DNA of 64,000 nt from positions 14,627 to 78,626 of the forward strand of contig CAYTFH010000002.1 of NCBI GenBank assembly GCA_964437095.1. The letters are read 5' to 3'. Under the pieces are notes generated by a model that did no database searches, was not told the origin of the DNA, and saw only the letters and a program-made list of their open reading frames with translations. Positions 6,311 through 19,905 of the stretch are shown here, piece by piece. A program made the position numbers and the translations under genes. This DNA comes from an uncultured bacterium. GTDB taxonomy: Bacteria; Sysuimicrobiota; Sysuimicrobiia; Sysuimicrobiales; Sysuimicrobiaceae. Positions within the stretch are counted from its first letter, which is position 1. Every line of letters starts with the position of its first letter.

Positions 6311-6539
6311 TCTCCTCGGGCCAGCGTTTTACACTGCTACCGGTATGAGGGGTTCGCAGGACCTCCTGTTCGCGCCGCGGCAGTGCATCTGTCCTCGGCG
6401 GGGGCACGGGTGTGGCGCCTGCCACGCTGGCCCCCGCGTCGCCTGACCGCGCGCGGCCGTCCTCTCCCACAGCACCACCGCGTCCACCACAACTCCCGAC
6501 CGCGCGCCGGATCCCTGGACCAACGAGGAGGTGGTCTGG

Positions 6540-8386: not shown

Positions 8387-9186
8387 GCCGGCTGGTGGCG
8401 GGCGTGCTGTTGCTCGGAAGCTGGGAGCTGGCCTCCCGGCTGCGGTGGCTGGACCCGTTCCTGTTCCCCTCGCCGAGCGCGGTGGGCTGGGTGCTGTACG
8501 AGCTGGCCCGTACGGGACAGGTCTGGGGGCACCTGAGGGTCACGGTGTGGGAAGCGGTGGCGGGCCTGGGGCTGGGTACCGCGGTGGGGGCGGTTCTGGG
8601 GTTGGTGTGCGCCACCTTCCGGCCCTTGGCGCAGGTGGTGGAGCCCGCCATGGCGCTGCTCAACGCCGTCCCCCGGGTGATCCTGGCACCCCTGTTCGTC
8701 ATCTGGTTCGGCATCGGCGCGGCCTCCAAGGTGGCCCTGAGCTTCCTGCTGGTCATGGTGGTGATGTTCTTCGCCACGTACTCCGGCATCCGGGAGGTGG
8801 ACCCCCGGTTGGTGGAGCGCATCCGCACCCTGGGCGGCGGACGGCGGGAGGTGGTGCGGGAGGTGCACGTCCCTTCCGTGACCGCCTGGGTGGCCAGCGG
8901 CCTGAAGGTGGCGGTGGGGTTCGCGTTTACCGGCGCGGTGGTGGGGGAGTTCGTGGCCTCCAGCCAGGGCCTGGGCTACCTCCTATCCTTCGCGCAGAGC
9001 ACGTACAACGCGCCCCTCACCCTGGCCCTCATCGCTTTGGTGGTGGGGGTCATCCTCCTGCTGTTCTACGCCTTCGGGCGGCTGGAACGGTGGTGGCTGC
9101 GGTGGAAGCCGCAGTACCGAGGTGCCCGCCGCCCTGGCCCGCAGGCGGCGGGCCCTGCGGTTCAGCCTGCGGAGCAGTCGCCGTAG
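8383..9186 (+). CDS. ABC transporter permease (NitT/TauT family)
   Basis: Six-TM BPD-transporter permease. ATG overlaps the upstream TGA (ATGA). Confidence 0.8.
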   Translation: MSRLVAGVLLLGSWELASRLRWLDPFLFPSPSAVGWVLYELARTGQVWGHLRVTVWEAVAGLGLGTAVGAVLGLVCATFRPLAQVVEPAMALLNAVPRVILAPLFVIWFGIGAASKVALSFLLVMVVMFFATYSGIREVDPRLVERIRTLGGGRREVVREVHVPSVTAWVASGLKVAVGFAFTGAVVGEFVASSQGLGYLLSFAQSTYNAPLTLALIALVVGVILLLFYAFGRLERWWLRWKPQYRGARRPGPQAAGPAVQPAEQSP

Positions 9187-11103: not shown

Positions 11104-12537
11104 ATGAGCACGAGGGAGCGTTCCGCGCGGTTGGAGATCCATCCCGGAGCCGTGGTCCACGCCCCCGAGGGCGTGGCGGGCCGCGTAGCGGAGGTGGTGG
11201 TGAGCCCGCGGGAGCGCCGGGTGGTGGCCCTGGTGGTGGAGCTCGGCTCCGGCCGACCCGTGGTGGTGCCGGCGGAATCGGTGGAGGACGCCACGGAGGA
11301 GGCCGTGCGGGTGCGGGCCTCCGTGGCGGAGCTGGAGCGGCTGCCGGCCTGGCAGGCGGAGGCGCACGCGCCCGCGGCGCTGTCGTGGCCTGGGTGGAGG
11401 GCCCTGCGGCAGGGGGGTGCGTGGCTGCCCCTGCCGGGGTCGTTGCGGCGCATGGAGGGGCTGCAGCGGCAACTTTCGGGTCAAGCCGTAGTACGGCCGG
11501 AGGAGCCGTTCGCGATCATCCGGCGCGGGCAGCGGGTGGTGGCCAGCGACGGCGCCATCGGCCGCGTGGACCAAGTACTGGTGGACGCCGCCACGGGCCA
11601 GGTGAAGCACCTGGTGGTGCGTCAGGGGTTGCTGTTCTCCCGAGACGTGGCCGTCCCCGCGGACTGGGTGAGCACCATCGAGGACGGGGTGGTGGTGCTG
11701 GAGGCTTCCCGGGACGCGGTGGCGCGCCTGCCCGTGTGCCGGCCCGACGACGAGCTGGAGCGGGACGTGGAGGAAGCCCTGCAGCGGGAGGAGCTGTTGC
11801 GGGTCCTGGCGGTGCCCGTGCGGCCGGAGGTGGTCGACGGGGTGGTGCGGCTGCGGGGCCACGTGCACAGCCGGGCCCTGGCCGCGCGGGCGGAGGAGGT
11901 GGCGCGGTCGGTGCCGGGTGTGGTGGAGGTCTGCAACGAGCTGGTGGTGGACCACGAGCTGCTGCAACAGGTGGTGGCCTCCGTGCAGGCGGATCCGGCC
12001 ACCCGGCACCTGGCGGGATACTCCCTGCGGGTGCGGGACGGGGTGGTGGAGCTTACGGGCAGTGTGCCTTCCCTGGAGGCGGCGCGGGCCCTGGAGCGGG
12101 CCATCGCCCGGGTGCCCGGGGTGCGGGGGATCGCCAACCACATGACGGGCCTGGACGTCCCGCCCACGTGGCGGCAGGTGGTGCAGCCGGAAGTGGGCCG
12201 ACCAGTGTACGCCACGGACCAGGAGCTGGGCCGGGTGGAGGCGGTGGTGGTGGACCCCGACAACCGCCGGGTGCAGGCCGTGGTGGTGGCGGGCGAGTTC
12301 CCGGACGCGGGTGTGTTGCCCTTCGCCGCGGGACCCCTGTGGGAGCGCCGGGTGGTGATCCCCTTGGAGGACGTGGAGCGCGTAACCCCTGGGGGCGTGT
12401 TCCTGCGGGTTCACGCGGGTGAGGCCGCGGAGCGGCCGGACCTGCGCGAGGAGGACTACCCGCCCGCGCCGCCTTCATGGGTCCCGCCCTTCCCCTACGG
12501 GTCCGGGCAGGTCCGGTGGCCCGCGAAGACCGGATAG
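11104..12537 (+). CDS. stress protein with three PRC-barrel and two BON domains
   Basis: Repeated xVxAxDGxxGRVxxVxVDxxxxRVxxLVV PRC-barrel motifs (three copies) and BON-like VRLRGHVHSRALAARAEEVARSVPGVVEVCNELVV segments. Confidence 0.6.
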   Translation: MSTRERSARLEIHPGAVVHAPEGVAGRVAEVVVSPRERRVVALVVELGSGRPVVVPAESVEDATEEAVRVRASVAELERLPAWQAEAHAPAALSWPGWRALRQGGAWLPLPGSLRRMEGLQRQLSGQAVVRPEEPFAIIRRGQRVVASDGAIGRVDQVLVDAATGQVKHLVVRQGLLFSRDVAVPADWVSTIEDGVVVLEASRDAVARLPVCRPDDELERDVEEALQREELLRVLAVPVRPEVVDGVVRLRGHVHSRALAARAEEVARSVPGVVEVCNELVVDHELLQQVVASVQADPATRHLAGYSLRVRDGVVELTGSVPSLEAARALERAIARVPGVRGIANHMTGLDVPPTWRQVVQPEVGRPVYATDQELGRVEAVVVDPDNRRVQAVVVAGEFPDAGVLPFAAGPLWERRVVIPLEDVERVTPGGVFLRVHAGEAAERPDLREEDYPPAPPSWVPPFPYGSGQVRWPAKTG

Positions 12538-12543
12538 ATGCAC

Positions 12544-12584
12544 TGTCAAGAGACTTGACAATACCATTGTCAACCACGTAGCCT
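12544..12584 (+). promoter_or_regulatory. hspR-dnaK operon promoter with overlapping HAIR-like inverted repeats (putative HspR operator)
   Basis: TGTCAAG-aga-CTTGACA-atacca-TTGTCAA: CTTGACA-N7-TGTCAAC mirrors the HAIR consensus CTTGAGT-N7-ACTCAAG. -35 TTGACA (12555-12560), 18-nt spacer, -10-like TAGCCT (12579-12584). Confidence 0.6.
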
Positions 12585-12616
12585 GGGGTCGGAAGCTGGC
12601 AGCGAGGGATTGAGCC

Positions 12617-12937
12617 GTGGCGGAGCGGACCTACCGGCGGGACGAGGTGCCGGTGTACGTGATCAGCGTGGCCGCGGAGCTGGCGGGGGTGCACCCCCGC
12701 ACCCTCCGGATCTACGAGGCCAAGGGGCTGATCCGGCCCGCCCGGCGGAAGCACATCCGGCTGTTCAGCGAGCGGGACGTGCAGCGGGTGCGGCTGATCC
12801 AGTACCTGACCCAGGAGGTGGGGCTGAACCTGGCGGGGGTGCGGCTGTTCCTGGAGATCCAGGAACGCCACGAGGAGGTGGCGCAGTGGTTGCTGGAGCT
12901 TTGCGACACCCAAACGGAAAGGAGGGAGCGGCGATGA
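12617..12937 (+). CDS. hspR: MerR-family heat-shock transcriptional repressor HspR-like
   Basis: [52 protein letters not shown] is a MerR HTH. The gene is first in the dnaK operon and an HAIR-like dyad lies upstream. Confidence 0.8.
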
Positions 12938-13386
12938 GCATCCTGCGGTGGGACCCCTTCGAGGAGCTGCGGGAGATGCAGCGGTCCTTGGACCGCCTGT
13001 TCGACGAGTTGTCGGGCCGGCGGCCGCTGCGGCGTCGGGAGGCGCGGGAGCCCGTGGTGTGGGAGCCCGCGGTGGAGGTGTACGAGACGGACCAGGAGGT
13101 GGTGGTCCGGGCGGAGCTGCCCGGCGTGGACCCTAAGAACGTGAACGTGACCGTGCAGGACAACACCGTGACCATCGAGGCGGAGGCCAAGGAGGAGCAG
13201 GAGGAGCGGGGTCGCACCTACCTGCGCCGGGAGCTGCGCTACGGCCAGTTCTGCCGGAGCCTGACGCTGCCCGCGGAGGTGCGGGCGGACGCGGCCAAGG
13301 CCACCTACCGCAACGGTGTGCTGGAGCTGCGCGTGCCCAAGAGCGAGCGCGCGAAGCCCAAGCAGGTGAAGGTGGAGGTGAGCTGA
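12934..13386 (+). CDS. Hsp20/alpha-crystallin family small heat shock protein
   Basis: [25 protein letters not shown]...[32 protein letters not shown]...LELRVPK. ATG overlaps the hspR stop (ATGA) and follows GGAGGGAG. Confidence 0.9.
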
Positions 13387-13393
13387 CCAAGCA

Positions 13394-13426
13394 CGCGGGG
13401 CGGCCCCGCCGCGGGGCCGCCCCGCG
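13394..13426 (+). other. perfect 31-33 nt GC palindrome (stable hairpin) between hsp20 and dnaK, no U tract
   Basis: GCGGGGCGGCCCCGC-C-GCGGGGCCGCCCCGC is exactly self-complementary (stem of about 15 bp) and is followed by GAGGGAGGGAG (the dnaK RBS). Confidence 0.7.
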
Positions 13427-13440
13427 AGGGAGGGAGTGAC

Positions 13441-15324
13441 ATGGGCAGGGTTGTCGGCATCGATCTGGGTACCACCAACTCGGTCATCGCGGCCATGGTG
13501 GGTGGAGAGCCCGTGGTGATCCCCAACCGGGAGGGCAGCCGCCTCACCCCGTCCGTGGTGGCCTTCACCAAGACCGGGGAGCGCCTGGTGGGGCAGATGG
13601 CCAAGCGGCAGGCCATCCTCAACCCCGAGAACACCATCTACTCCATCAAGCGCTTCATGGGGCGCCGCTTCCACGAGGTGGAGACGGAGCGGAAGATGGT
13701 GCCCTACAAGGTGGTGGAGGGCCAGCACGGCATGGCGGTGGTGGACATCCCCGCCGCGGGCCGCACCTTCACCCCTGAGGAGATCTCCGCCATGATCCTC
13801 CAGAAGCTGAAGGAGGACGCGGAGGCTTACCTGGGGGAGAAGGTGGAGGCGGCGGTGATCACCGTGCCCGCGTACTTCAACGACGCCCAGCGCACCGCCA
13901 CCAAGAACGCGGGGGAGATCGCGGGGCTCAAGGTGTTGCGGATCATCAACGAGCCCACCGCCGCCTGCCTGGCCTACGGGCTGGACAAGAAGGGCTCGGA
14001 GACGGTGCTGGTGTGGGACCTGGGAGGCGGGACCTTCGACGTCTCCGTCCTGGAGATCGGGGAAGGGGTGTTCCAGGTGCGGGCCACCGCGGGGGACACC
14101 CACCTGGGCGGGGACGACTGGGACGAGCGCATCGTGAACTGGCTGGCGGAGGAGTTCCGCAAGCAGCACGGCATCGACCTCCGCCAGGACCGGCAGGCCC
14201 TGCAGCGGCTGCGGGAGGCCGCGGAGCGGGCCAAGATCGAGCTCAGCGCCATGGTGCAGACCACCATCAACCTGCCCTTCATCACCGCGGACGCCACGGG
14301 GCCCAAGCACCTGGACATGGTGCTCACTCGGGCCAAGTTCGAGGAGCTCACCGCGGACCTGGTGGAGCGGTGCATCGGGCCCTTCCGTCAGGCCCTGCAG
14401 GACGCCAAGCTCAGCGAGCGGGACCTGCACGAGGTCATCCTGGTGGGCGGCAGCACCCGCATGCCCATGATCCAGGAGCTGGTGCGCCGGCTCACGGGGA
14501 AGGAGCCCAACAAGGAGGTCCACCCGGACGAGGTGGTGGCCGTGGGCGCGGCCATCCAGGCGGGGGTGCTGGCGGGTGAGGTGCGGGACGTGGTGCTCCT
14601 GGACGTCACCCCCCTGTCCCTGGGCATCGAGACCCTGGGCGGGGTCATGACGGTCCTCATCCCGCGGAACACCACCATCCCCACCCGGAAGAGCGAGACC
14701 TTCACCACCGCGGAGGACGGCCAGACCCAGGTGGAGATCCACGTGCTGCAGGGCGAGCGGCCCATGGCCCGGGACAACCGCACCCTGGGCCGGTTCATCC
14801 TGGACGGCATCCCGCCCGCGCCGCGGGGGGTGCCCAAGATCGAGGTCACCTTCGACATCGACGCCAACGGCATCCTGGCGGTGTCCGCCAAGGACCTGGC
14901 CACGGGCCGCGAGCAGTCCATCAAGATCACCGGCACCTCCACCCTCACCCGGGAGGAGGTGGAGCGGATGATCAAGGAGGCGGAGGCCCACGCGGAGGAG
15001 GACCGCCGCAAGCGCGAAGAGGCGGAGATCCTCAACCGCGGGGACAGCCTGGCCTACCAGACGGAGCGGCTGCTGCGGGACCAGGCCAAGGGCGTGTCGG
15101 AAGCCGAGCGGCGGGAGCTGGAGCAGAAGGTGGCGGAGCTCCGGCAGGCGGTGCAGGCCCGGGACGTCCAGCGGGTGCGGCAGCTGTCGGAGGAGGTGCA
15201 GCGCCTCACCTACAAGCTCAGTGAGCTGCTGTACCGCGGTGCGGCCAGTGGGGCCAGCACCGGCGGCGGTCAGAGCAAGGGGGACGGGGAGGTCATCGAC
15301 GCGGACTACAAGCCCAGCGACTAG
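13441..15324 (+). CDS. dnaK: molecular chaperone DnaK (Hsp70)
   Basis: [25 protein letters not shown] and [12 protein letters not shown] Hsp70 signatures; 627 aa. Confidence 0.97.
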
Positions 15325-15342: not shown

Positions 15343-15948
15343 ATGTGGGAGGAGCGTCCGGAGCGGGAAGGCACCGAGCCGGAAGCCGCAGGGCAGGCCA
15401 CTCCCGCGGAGGCCGAGGCTCCGGAGCAGGCCGCCGCGGAGCCGCAGCCCGTGGTGGTGACCCAGGAGGAGCTGGCGGCCCTCCGGGAGGAGGTGGAGCG
15501 CTACCGCCAGGAGGCGGAGCGCAACTGGCAGCAGTTCCTGCACGCGGCCGCGGACCTGGAGAACTACAAGAAGGCCGCGGCCCGCATGCAGCAGGACGCG
15601 GTGGACCGCACCCGGCGGCAGATGCTGTTGGTGCTCCTCGGGGCGGTGGACGACCTGGAGCGGGCCATCGCCTACGCGGAGCGCGGGGCGGAGCACGAGG
15701 CCGTGGCGGGGATCCTGGAGGGTCTGCGCATCACCCACCGGTCCCTGCTGGACCAGCTCCGGGCCCTGGGCGTGGAGCGCATGGAGGTGGCGGGCGAGCG
15801 GTTCGACCCCGCCCACCACGAGGCGGTGGAGGTGACCCCCGCGGAGGAGGCGGGGGTGGAGCCGGGCACGGTGCTGGAGGCCGTGCAGCCCGGCTACGTC
15901 CTGGACGGTCGGGTCCTGCGCCCCGCACGGGTGCGGGTGGCCCAGTGA
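15343..15948 (+). CDS. grpE: nucleotide exchange factor GrpE
   Basis: Coiled-coil N-terminus followed by the GrpE C-terminal domain (FDPAHHEAVEV...VLEAVQPGYVLDGRVLRPARVRV). Confidence 0.9.
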   Translation: MWEERPEREGTEPEAAGQATPAEAEAPEQAAAEPQPVVVTQEELAALREEVERYRQEAERNWQQFLHAAADLENYKKAAARMQQDAVDRTRRQMLLVLLGAVDDLERAIAYAERGAEHEAVAGILEGLRITHRSLLDQLRALGVERMEVAGERFDPAHHEAVEVTPAEEAGVEPGTVLEAVQPGYVLDGRVLRPARVRVAQ

Positions 15949-15975: not shown

Positions 15976-16875
15976 ATGGAGTTCAAGGACTACTACCGGA
16001 TCCTGGGGGTGGATCGCAAGGCCGACAGCAAGGCCATCGGGGAGGCTTTCCGTCGGCTCGCCCGGCAGTACCACCCGGACGTGAACAAGGACCCCCAGGC
16101 CGCGGAGAAGTTCAAGGAGATCAACGAGGCCTACCAGGTCCTCAGCGACCCGGAAAAGCGCGCCCGCTACGACCAGATGCTGGAGCTGCGGGAGCGCGGG
16201 ATGCCCTGGGAGCAGGTGTTCACCCGACCGGGGACGGGCCGCACCGCGGAGTGGACGTGGTTCGGGGAGCCCCAGGATTTGTTCGGCGGGTTCTCCGACT
16301 TCTTCCGCCGGTTCTTCGCAGACCTGGGAGGCCCCTTCGAGGCGGAAGGGCTGTGGGGCCAGCAGCCCCTCACCGCCACCGCGGAGATCAGCCTGGAGGA
16401 GGCCTTCCGCGGCACCGAGCGGGAGCTGGTGGTGCGCAACGGGTTCCCGCGGCGCGTAACGGTGCGGATCCCACCCGGGGTCCACACAGGCCAGAAGGTG
16501 CGGGTGCGGGGTGCGGGCGGGGACGTGTACGTGGAAGTCCGGGTGCAGCCCCACCCGGTGTTCTCCCGGGAGGGCGACGACCTGGTGTGCGAGATCCCCA
16601 TCTGCCTCACGGAGGCCCTGCTGGGCGCGGAGATCGAGGTCCCCACCCTGGAGGGCAAGGTGAAGGTGCGGGTCCCGCCCGAGACCCAGCAGGGGCAGGT
16701 GTTGAGGCTGCGGGGCCTGGGGATGCCGAAGCTGCGGGGCTCCGGGCGCGGGGACCTGCTGGTCCGGCTGCGGGTGGTGCTGCCGCGGGGGTTGAGCGTG
16801 GAGGAGCGGCGGTTGGTGGAGCAGCTGGCCAAGCTCCGGCGCGAGAACCCGCGGGCTGCCATGGGGCTCAAGTAA
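15976..16875 (+). CDS. DnaJ-class co-chaperone without zinc finger (CbpA-like)
   Basis: [35 protein letters not shown]...[20 protein letters not shown] domain plus C-terminal DnaJ substrate-binding domains. No CxxCxGxG repeats. Confidence 0.85.
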
Positions 16876-16898: not shown

Positions 16899-19505
16899 AT
16901 GCGGTGGGACAAGCTGACGGAGAAGTCGCAGGAAGCCCTGGCGCGGGCCCAGGAGCTGGCCCGGGAGCGCGGCCACCCGCAGGTGGACACCGAGCACCTG
17001 CTGGCGGCCCTCCTGGACCAGGCGGACGGGGTGGTCCCGCAGGTGCTGCAGAAGGCGGGGGCGTCCGTGGCCCGCATCCGCCAGCAGGTGGGCCAGGCCC
17101 TGGCGGCCCTGCCCCAGGTGCACGGTGCGGCGGAGCTGTACGTGGCCCCGGGCCTGCGGCGTGTGTGGGACGCGGCGGAGCAGGAAGCCCAGCGGATGCA
17201 GGACGAGTACACCAGCACGGAGCACTTCCTCCTGGCCATGGCCGACGCCCCCCAGACGGGCGCCGGCCGGGTGCTGCAGCAGAACGGGGTCACCAAGGAG
17301 GCGGTGCTGCGGGCCCTGTCGGAGGTCCGGGGTTGGGTGCGGGTCACCGACCCCCGGCCGGAGGCCAAGTACCAGGTCCTGGAGCGCTACGGCCGGGACC
17401 TCACGGAGCTGGCGCGGGCCGGCAAGCTGGACCCCGTGATCGGGCGGGACGAGGAGATCCGGCGGGTGATCCACGTCCTCAGCCGCCGCACCAAGAACAA
17501 CCCCGTGCTCATCGGCGAGCCGGGGGTGGGCAAGACGGCCATCGTGGAGGGGCTGGCGCAGCGGATCGTGCGCGGGGACGTGCCCGAGCAGCTGAAGCAC
17601 AAGCGGGTCTTCCAGCTGGACATGGGGGCGTTGGTGGCGGGGACCAAGTACCGGGGCGAGTTCGAGGAGCGGCTGAAGGCGGTCCTCAAGGAGATCGCGG
17701 ACAGCCACGGGGAGATCATCCTGTTCATCGACGAGATCCACACCGTGGTGGGCGCGGGGGCCGCGGAGGGGGCCGCCATGGACGCCGCCAACATCCTCAA
17801 GCCCATGCTGGCCCGGGGGGAGCTGCACTGCATCGGCGCCACCACCCTGGACGAGTACCGCAAGCACATCGAGAAGGACCCGGCCCTGGAGCGCCGGTTC
17901 CAGCCCGTGTACGTGGGCGAGCCGTCGGTGGAGGATACCATCTCCATCCTCCGGGGCCTCAAGGAGAAGTACGAGGTCCACCACGGGGTGCGGATCACGG
18001 ACGCCGCGGTGATCGCCGCCGCCACCCTGTCCAGCCGCTACATCAGCGACCGCTTCCTGCCCGACAAGGCCATCGACCTCATCGACGAGGCCGCGGCCAA
18101 GCTCCGCATGGAGATCGACAGCAAACCCGCGGAGCTGGACGAGATCGACCGCCGCATCATGCAGCTGGAGATCGAACGCGAGGCGCTGCGCAGGGAGACC
18201 GATCCCGCCGCCCAGGAGCGGCTGGCGAAGCTGGAGCAGGAGCTGGAGCGGCTGCTCCGGGACAGCGAGGCCCTGCGGCAGCGGTGGGACCGGGAGAAGC
18301 AGATCGTCCAGCGGATCCGGCAGATCAAGGCGGACATCGACCGCACCAAGGTGGAGCTGGAGCAGGCGGAGCGGGTGGCGGACCTGGAGCGGGCGGCCCG
18401 GTTGCGGTACGGGACCCTGCCCGAGCTGCACAAGCAGCTGGGCGCGGCCGAGGCGGAGCTGCGGGCCCTGGGCCCGCACCGCCTGCTGAAGGAGGAGGTG
18501 GACGCGGAGGACATCGCGGAGGTGGTGAGCAAGTGGACCGGCATCCCGGTGACCAAGCTGCTGGAGGGCGAGATGCAGAAGCTCCTGCAGCTGGAGGACC
18601 GGCTCCACCAGCGGGTGGTGGGGCAGGACGAGGCGGTCCAGGCGGTGGCGGACGCCATCCGCCGGGCTCGGGCGGGGCTGAAGGACCCCAAGCGGCCCAT
18701 CGGCGCCTTCCTGTTCCTGGGCCCCACGGGGGTGGGCAAGACGGAGCTGGCCCGCGCCCTGGCGGAGGTGCTGTTCGACTCCGAGGACGCCATGGTGCGC
18801 ATCGACATGTCCGAGTACCAGGAGAAGCACACGGTCTCCCGGCTGGTGGGCGCGCCTCCCGGCTACGTGGGCTACGAGGAGGGCGGGCAGCTCACGGAGG
18901 CCGTGCGGCGCCGGCCCTACCGGGTGGTGCTGTTCGATGAGGTGGAGAAGGCGCACCCGGACGTGCTCAACGTGCTCCTGCAGGTGATGGAGGACGGGCG
19001 GCTCACGGACGCCCAGGGCCGCACCGTGGACTTCAAGAACACCGTCCTCATCCTCACCAGCAACGTGGGCAGCCAGCACCTCCAGCACCTGGACCCCGAG
19101 GACCCCGCGGCCTTCGAGCTGGCCAAGGTGTACGTGCTGGACGAGCTGCGCCGGACCTTCCGGCCGGAGTTCCTCAACCGCCTGGACGAGATCATCGTGT
19201 TCCGGCCCCTGTCCCGGGCCCAGCTGGAGCGCATCGTAGACCTGCAGCTGGCGTACCTGGAGCGGCGGCTGGCGGACCTGAAGATCCGGGTGGAGGTGAC
19301 CCCGGAGGCGCGGGAGTGGGTGGCCCGGGAGGGCTACAGCCCCGACTACGGTGCGCGGCCCCTGCGGCGCCTGATCCAGCGGACGGTGGAGAACACGCTG
19401 AGCCGCATGGTCCTGCGGGGCGAGCTGCGGGAAGGAGACGTGGCCGTGGTCACGGTGCGCGGCGGGGCTATCGCCGTGGAACGCCAACAGCCCGTGCCCG
19501 CGTGA
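16899..19505 (+). CDS. clpB: ATP-dependent chaperone ClpB
   Basis: Two AAA+ modules ([16 protein letters not shown]) with a long middle coiled-coil domain; 868 aa. ATG follows GGGGAGGAG. Confidence 0.95.
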
Positions 19506-19518
19506 GCCCCGGGGCTGC

Positions 19519-19905
19519 TCAGCCGTACCCGAGCTCCTCCAGGCGGTCCTCGTCCAGGCCGAAGTAGTGGCCCAGCTCGTGCAGCACGGTCCTGCGGATC
19601 TCCTCCCGCAGGCCGTCCTCGCTGTCGTAGGCGTCCTCCAGGGGCCCCTGGAAGAGGGTGATGCGGTCCGGCAGCAGGGGAGGCTCGATGCCGCGCTCCG
19701 GCAGGGGTGTGCCCTCGTACAGGCCGAACAGCACCCCGTCCTCGGGCAGGCCCACGGACGCCAGCTGTTCGGGGGTGGGCCAGTCCTCCACCACCACGTG
19801 CACGTTCTGGAGGGCGCGGCGGAACGGCTCGGGCACCTCCGCCAGGGCCTCTTCCACCAGTCGCCGGAAGCGCCTGCGGCTGAGGCGCACGGTGACCCCC
19901 TTCAC
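19519..19905 (-). CDS. small zinc metallopeptidase-like protein (minimal MMP-like family)
   Basis: HELGHYFG HExxH motif in a 128-aa protein. Confidence 0.55.
   Translation of the reverse strand: MKGVTVRLSRRRFRRLVEEALAEVPEPFRRALQNVHVVVEDWPTPEQLASVGLPEDGVLFGLYEGTPLPERGIEPPLLPDRITLFQGPLEDAYDSEDGLREEIRRTVLHELGHYFGLDEDRLEELGYG

Follow-up and report, generated by a model that had tools for sequence, protein, structure and literature searches.

Stem-loops between the cistrons of an operon can protect the mRNA on either side of them. In malE-malF, a 3′ protective hairpin stops 3′-to-5′ exonucleases and preserves the upstream cistron, and in papBA the transcript is cut by an endonuclease directly 5′ of a hairpin, which then shields the 5′ terminus of the segment that follows (PMC5927463). 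In the Bacillus subtilis dnaK operon, the repressor and the chaperones are uncoupled through RNase Y-dependent cleavage between the repressor gene hrcA and grpE (PMC11313650, PMC3446304), and two further articles also deal with protective stem-loops (PMC4423207, PMC8219983). Operon tuning by such hairpins is well known, and the locus described here does not challenge the current understanding.

Our analysis covers a 64-kb stretch of DNA, called the window in the following, which has a G+C content of ~72% and harbors a six-gene heat-shock operon with a very G/C-rich palindrome between hsp20 and dnaK. Related loci are labeled Candidatus Sysuimicrobiota (CSP1-3), including Candidatus Tepidifontimicrobium thermophilum. 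This phylum is uncultured and known from hot springs, and a metatranscriptome of related organisms has been deposited (SRR27732999; PMC11604079).

Like the REP element of malE-malF, the decay terminator of the Rhodobacter puf operon and the SRPS stem-loops of the Clostridium cip-cel operon, the hairpin in the window is stable, lacks a U tract and lies between co-directional cistrons. As in these systems, a few nucleotides separate it from the preceding stop codon, relatives conserve it, and it is found where a more abundant product, here the small Hsp, precedes less abundant ones. In contrast to the malE-malF REP, it is a single-copy, locus-specific element rather than a dispersed one, and it differs in having an all-G/C stem of much higher stability, as expected at ~70 °C.

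A second group of systems, comprising B. subtilis hrcA|grpE-dnaK-dnaJ and cggR|gapA as well as Escherichia coli papB|papA, where RNase E cuts just upstream of the hairpin, shares with our locus an operon that starts with its own repressor gene, and an A-rich unpaired stretch followed by a hairpin and a strong Shine-Dalgarno (SD) sequence. This order of linker, hairpin and SD is what a cleavage site followed by a 5′ protective structure looks like (PMC5927463, PMC11313650, PMC3446304). Unlike in the hrcA|grpE type, hsp20 is here located on the repressor side of the hairpin, and the regulator is HspR-like rather than HrcA. The B. subtilis dnaK operon is the closest biological parallel.

With a canonical Rho-independent terminator, the element shares a G/C-rich hairpin directly 3′ of a stop codon, but a U tract is found in neither the window nor the orthologues, and four essential genes of the operon come next, within 15 nt. 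In Thermotoga maritima a small heat-shock gene reportedly lies directly upstream of dnaK, as it does here, an arrangement that Michelini and Flynn are said to have described in 1999. To our knowledge, no such hairpin has been described for the T. maritima hsp20-dnaK operon, whose regulator and remaining genes differ.

The heat-shock operon and its candidate promoter

The operon comprises six genes on the forward strand in the order hspR-like, hsp20, dnaK, grpE, dnaJ and clpB, with the hairpin between the second and the third. Its first gene (12617–12937) encodes a MerR-family repressor of 106 aa (Pfam MerR_1), whose best NCBIfam match is HspR with 92.5 bits (cut-off 105), while other MerR families reach at most 41 bits. 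It is followed by hsp20 (12934–13386), the cistron upstream of the hairpin, which encodes a small heat-shock protein of 150 aa (Pfam HSP20, 1.1e-23), and by the downstream cistron dnaK (13441–15324; 627 aa; Pfam HSP70, 6.4e-263). Next come grpE (15343–15948; Pfam GrpE), a dnaJ-like gene (15976–16875) whose product of 299 aa has a J domain and a C-terminal domain but no zinc-finger domain match, and clpB (16899–19505) as the last gene. The spacers between these genes measure −4, 54, 18, 27 and 23 nt, so the gap between hsp20 and dnaK is the only long one, and it is also the only one that contains a structure; the 18-nt spacer after dnaK, for example, has no hairpin.

At 12934–12937 the stop codon of the hspR-like gene overlaps the start codon of hsp20 (ATGA), unlike the structured 54-nt spacer before dnaK, and this overlap suggests translational coupling of the repressor and the small Hsp. 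The DnaJ of the operon is short and resembles the Thermus/CbpA type, and a second, unrelated J-domain protein of 265 aa is encoded at 769–1566. At the far end of the operon, clpB and a zincin-like metallopeptidase gene on the reverse strand converge with 13 nt between their stop codons (19505–19519), which leaves no room for a terminator there. Directly upstream of the operon lies a gene for a BON/PRC-barrel protein (11104–12537) that is conserved in the close relatives L001–L003 and L137–L143; in L137, L139, L140 and L142, an NfeD/SDH-protease gene on the opposite strand is the next one further upstream. Pfam annotation of ~30 window genes revealed no RNase gene.

A candidate promoter combined with a HAIR-like operator is located upstream of the hspR-like gene at 12543–12585 (+; TGTCAAG-aga-CTTGACAAT-acc-ATTGTCAA). 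This segment forms a sharply conserved island in the otherwise divergent upstream regions of nine relatives. It includes a −35 box, TTGACA, at 12555–12560 and the sequence TAGCCT ~18 nt downstream, and the −35 box sits within AT-containing inverted repeats of the HAIR type, with a CTTGACA-N7-TGTCAAc site at 12554–12574. The segment is likely to be the single promoter and operator of the operon. No promoter-like site was detected in the hsp20-dnaK spacer, and we infer from the arrangement of the locus that all six genes are co-transcribed from one promoter upstream of hspR.

The palindrome between hsp20 and dnaK

The spacer extends over 54 nt (13387–13440, +) from the TGA of hsp20 at 13384–13386 to the ATG of dnaK at 13441. 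Direct reading of the sequence reveals a perfect inverted repeat of 16+1+16 nt at 13394–13426 (+), 7 nt 3′ of the hsp20 stop codon. The original prediction had described a 31-nt palindrome with a stem of about 15 bp, and this 31-mer, GCGGGGCGGCCCCGC-C-GCGGGGCCGCCCCGC, is present at 13395–13425 with 0 mismatches; the repeat is in fact one pair longer on each side. Its description of a 54-nt spacer without a U tract, in which the palindrome directly precedes the dnaK ribosome-binding site, likewise agrees with our reading. In the RNA form, folding yields an all-G/C stem of 14–15 bp with a loop of 3–5 nt, and the hairpin by itself has an energy of about −37.5 to −38.6 kcal/mol at 37 °C. Each arm of the window palindrome is itself a 7+1+7 palindrome (GCGGGGC-G/C-GCCCCGC), so that the whole element also reads as two direct copies of a 16-nt unit in tandem; these nested arms permit either two small hairpins or one long one.

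Between the hsp20 stop codon and the hairpin lies an unpaired, A/C-rich linker, CCAAGCA (13387–13393, +), a candidate entry site for an endonuclease. The corresponding linkers in relatives are 7–13 nt long and contain ~36% A, as counted by eye from the 5′ flanks, in a genome of ~72% G+C. On the other side, the window stem is followed by AGGGAGGGAGTGAC and then by the dnaK ATG, so that there is no U tract and the SD adjoins the stem. The ribosome-binding region of dnaK occupies 13427–13440 (+; GGGAGGGAG), with GGAGGG at 13429–13434, 6 nt before the ATG, and all orthologues share its GGAGGGA without change. The dnaK SD remains single-stranded in nearly every fold predicted at 37 and 70 °C, and the AUG is not sequestered. 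The hairpin itself is predicted to retain −17 to −24 kcal/mol at 70 °C, with −24.4 kcal/mol for the fold of the window spacer. The copy in the window is the longest and most stable hairpin of its family, and what is loop in the relatives is part of the stem here.

Several comparisons bear out the original expectation that a repeat as perfect as this is unlikely to be due to chance. None is expected from 100 dinucleotide shuffles, the runner-up among perfect inverted repeats with a loop of up to 10 nt in the 64-kb window has a stem of 11 bp, and the longest stem in each of 300 random 64-kb sequences generated with a first-order Markov model (Markov-1) ranged from 9 to 15 bp and never reached 16. 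Among 31,978 windows of 44 nt on both strands, the hairpin is the most stable (−38.6 kcal/mol vs. a mean of −14.6, sd 4.6). Moreover, three independent public assemblies carry exactly the same spacer sequence, which rules out an assembly artifact.

The palindrome is also a single-copy element: only one copy is present in the window at up to 3 mismatches, and the window and each related locus contain a single occurrence of the core motif, in each case in the hsp20-dnaK spacer. A degenerate form of the 31-mer has no exact match in 185,579 species genomes, and a covariance model built from the orthologues gave strong matches only at the hsp20-dnaK spacer site in 21 sources. The element therefore does not belong to the dispersed repeats of the REP/BIME type, which occur as many intergenic copies, and the suggestion that it might be a generic REP-like repeat is refuted within the reach of these data. 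Rfam gave no match for the whole window at gathering scores or for the local region at E≤1, and the tRNA/tmRNA scan found neither.

Conservation of the hairpin in related operons

Conservation analysis was based on 16 distinct hsp20-dnaK spacers, that of the window and fifteen others, from genome, metagenome and assembly collections, with Hsp20 proteins that are 87–100% identical. Pairing was scored on a pair table anchored at the core and on a covariance-model alignment; a MAFFT alignment misplaced the outer stem pairs. All 16 spacers contain a hairpin of 11–15 bp at the same site, which starts 7–13 nt after the hsp20 stop codon and whose 3′ end lies 14–20 nt before the dnaK ATG. They share a family core, GGGGCGGCC/GGCCGCCCC (+), whose nine central pairs are essentially invariant, while the loop varies freely among relatives in both sequence and length (3–6 nt).

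At the ends of the stem, pairs change in a compensatory manner (CG/GC/GU; GC/UA/UG/CG; CG/GC), and L062 carries a compensated change or indel inside the stem. In the model-based alignment 89% of the cells are paired (95% in the main helix) and 7 pairs show double changes, a covariation that rests on the stem ends and on few independent events in 16 related sequences with an invariant, not covarying, core. None of 500 shuffles reached the observed values for pairing or double changes, and pairing dropped to 46–62% when the partners were slid by 1–3 columns. RNAalifold by itself recovered an 11-pair core. All non-Watson-Crick pairs in the interior of the stem (L007, L147, L060/L140 and L139/L142) are G·U on the sense strand and none is A·C; these are four apparently independent cases, and the ratio of 4:0 corresponds to p ~0.06. 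In addition, for 15 of the 16 spacers the sense-strand fold equals or exceeds its antisense counterpart in stability. The combination of compensatory changes, sense-strand G·U pairs and free loops indicates selection on mRNA structure rather than on a double-stranded DNA site. On the basis of these alignments, it is very probable that the hairpin is a selected RNA structure of the sense strand.

The hairpin is restricted to part of the lineage. Close relative L008 carries a degraded version without a strong hairpin, and the distant relatives L150 (with a 19-nt spacer), L152, L149 and L154 have the same operon, again without a strong hairpin; where distant relatives retain the order hspR-hsp20-dnaK-grpE, their spacers of 19, 41, 56 or 78 nt contain no comparable hairpin. 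The element is thus dispensable for the operon, and on this phylogenetic distribution it is a clade-specific addition that would tune the operon without being essential to it. In the distant relative L009 (4447–4620), the hsp20-dnaK spacer is 172 nt long. A long, imperfect structure forms at the stop codon, and a second, strong hairpin apart from it (GGTGCCGGGCGGC...GCCGCCCCGGTACC) is located ~113 nt from the hsp20 stop codon and ends 16 nt before the dnaK ATG; it may be homologous to the window element or convergent with it. In L017 and L019, labeled Armatimonadota, a canonical terminator composed of a hairpin and a T run follows hsp20 at the same relative position.

Pairing outside the stem was observed in a few relatives. 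In L004, L063 and L007 the stem is followed by CCCTCC, which is able to form 5–6 bp with the SD GGAGGG across a loop of 2–3 nt. Such anti-SD pairing was rejected as a general feature, as it is confined to these three spacers and absent from the window and most relatives. The predicted minimum free energy fold of L004 3266–3345 at 70 °C pairs the 5′ arm of the hairpin (GGCGGCCCGACC) with dnaK codons 2–6 (GGTCGGGTTGTC), which is probably coincidental and applies to that variant only.

Possible roles of the hairpin in the operon mRNA

The locus thus combines a spacer between two same-strand cistrons with a selected, stable stem-loop on the sense strand. We favor, at about an even chance, a role of this stem-loop as an intercistronic determinant of mRNA processing or stability that would uncouple hspR-hsp20 from dnaK-grpE-dnaJ-clpB. 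The original prediction had offered three options, and among these a processing or stability element setting the hsp20:dnaK stoichiometry is the one best supported by the comparative data. According to this model, the sense mRNA of the six-gene operon, transcribed from the HspR/HAIR-type promoter, would form the very stable stem-loop and would be cut endonucleolytically near it. In one variant, the hairpin would block 3′-to-5′ exonucleases and thereby preserve the upstream hspR-hsp20 segment, as in malE-malF or puf. In the other, it would protect the dnaK-grpE-dnaJ-clpB segment at its 5′ end, beside a strong, ribosome-occupied SD, as in papBA, cggR-gapA and the B. subtilis hrcA|grpE junction. 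Either way, the amounts of small Hsp and repressor would be uncoupled from those of the DnaK-ClpB machinery despite a single promoter. Co-transcription, the cut, the stabilized side and the effect on stoichiometry are all steps that we infer from the layout of the locus.

The 5′ protection variant is slightly favored by the unpaired A-rich linker and by a short and conserved distance to the ribosome-binding site of dnaK, seen also in L009, while the location a few nucleotides after the hsp20 stop codon fits the 3′ barrier variant equally well. For comparison with RNase III processing hairpins, the stems of the family measure 11–15 bp, and classical RNase III substrates of the T7 early mRNA type have ~20 bp, roughly two helical turns. 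If the processing and stability model is true, the locus would show how an uncultured thermophilic phylum sets the ratio of small Hsp and repressor to the DnaK-ClpB disaggregase from one HspR-controlled promoter. It would also illustrate the extreme G/C stem required for elements of this kind to work near 70 °C, and enlarge the set of conserved cis-RNA elements by one that Rfam does not include.

An attenuator or pause site without a U tract, whether factor-independent or factor-assisted, is an unlikely but plausible alternative. Here, a fraction of the RNA polymerases would terminate or pause on reaching the hairpin, resulting in more hspR-hsp20 than full-length transcript or in timed loading of ribosomes on dnaK. 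A strong G/C hairpin right after a stop codon is what such a site would look like, the terminators after hsp20 in L017 and L019 mark the hsp20 3′ end as a natural transcript end elsewhere, and none of the intergenic regions of the window contains a canonical terminator with a hairpin and a T tract, so that the lineage may end its transcripts in another way. However, intrinsic termination requires a weak rU:dA hybrid, and the bases after the stem are purine-rich (AGGGAGGGAG), with a U tract in no relative. Although it has the hairpin, the site was accordingly rejected as a canonical intrinsic terminator: the next 12 nt read AGGGAGGGAGTG, the terminator scan does not report it, and a T run follows the hairpin in none of the orthologues. 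Comparable hairpins are also lacking after the other genes of the window, which argues against a general terminator form of the lineage, and dnaK, grpE, dnaJ and clpB, which have no promoter-like spacer of their own, must be reached by read-through. Nor does the hairpin represent the usual gene end of this genome, since 3′ flanks in the window, taken as the 100 nt after the stop codons, show no more structure than coding sequence does (−20.3 vs. −20.9) and intergenic sites with a hairpin and a T tract are not found.

We regard it as rather unlikely that the hairpin serves as a translational insulator, which would lock up C-rich sequence and the upstream RNA and thereby keep the G-rich SD of dnaK accessible; ribosomes that finish hsp20 would be kept from sliding or coupling to dnaK, which would be translated independently. 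The 3′ end of the hairpin lies 14–20 nt before the ATG in the 16 orthologues and in L009, approximately at the upstream edge of the 30S footprint, and an SD that is unpaired in nearly all predicted folds at both temperatures is what insulation would predict, as is the contrast to hspR and hsp20, which overlap and appear coupled. On the other hand, relatives with 19- or 41-nt spacers keep the same SD without any hairpin, and a stem of 16 bp far exceeds what insulation needs. Such a role would be compatible with the processing and stability model rather than exclusive of it.

The distribution of the hairpin raises the question of whether it is selectively neutral or a decaying relic, for example of an hsp20 terminator that lost its U tract when an hspR-hsp20 unit and a dnaK operon fused, or of replication slippage that created a palindrome. 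Distant relatives with the same gene order do without the hairpin, the version in L008 is degraded, and the window copy, the most extreme of the family, resembles a recent extension of the loop into the stem. Nevertheless, we consider a relic improbable, as the loop and flanks have diverged freely while pairing in the main helix is kept at 95%, indicating purifying selection on pairing, and as the stem shows compensatory double changes together with the compensated change or indel in L062.

Two properties of the element are not explained by a mere barrier: its core is invariant where pairing alone would suffice, and its arms are nested palindromes. This leaves room for a lineage-specific regulatory RNA site instead of a passive barrier, and a small probability therefore goes to the hairpin being the target of a dedicated RNA-binding protein or of chaperone feedback, with Hsp20, DnaK or the HspR-like protein perhaps acting on its own mRNA, or to a terminator or pause signal that works independently of a U tract in a phylum apparently devoid of canonical intrinsic terminators.

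The perfect DNA palindrome with palindromic arms, and a core sequence that is invariant in relatives beyond what pairing demands, could also point to a DNA-level element, such as a cruciform or a palindromic site for a dimeric regulator. We find this very improbable, since the distance between the half-sites varies by several nucleotides among relatives, with an effective loop of 3–6 nt there and 1–3 nt in the window, and since mismatches occur only as sense-strand G·U, hence as A·C on the other strand. Furthermore, the site is operon-internal, ~850 nt from the promoter, and a conserved, AT-containing HAIR-like operator is present upstream of hspR. The protein-binding palindrome among the originally proposed options is disfavored by the variable arm spacing, by the strand-specific G·U pairs and by the presence of operator-like palindromes upstream of the first gene instead. 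The consensus operators of heat-shock regulators are CTTGAGT-N7-ACTCAAG for HAIR and TTAGCACTC-N9-GAGTGCTAA for CIRCE; the palindrome was rejected as a HAIR or CIRCE operator because it is all G/C, shows no similarity to either consensus, has variable half-site spacing and lies inside the operon.

An RNA thermometer controlling dnaK translation, the remaining original option of a thermosensitive structure, would suit a hairpin directly 5′ of the SD in a heat-shock operon but is extremely improbable, given that the predicted folds leave the SD and AUG free, that ~−24 kcal/mol are left at 70 °C (range −17 to −24 kcal/mol), which would preclude melting in the physiological range, and that Rfam yields no match even at E≤1; the free SD and AUG and a hairpin that persists at 70 °C likewise set it apart from ROSE/fourU-type thermometers.

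Two further stable folds were observed in the window. The second most stable local fold (9117–9160, −; −34.9 kcal/mol) contains a perfect inverted repeat of 10 bp, and the fifth most stable one is located at 6397–6440 (+; −34.0 kcal/mol). Each is situated in a spacer that separates two genes of the same orientation and lacks a U tract, and the two folds could represent further intercistronic stability elements.
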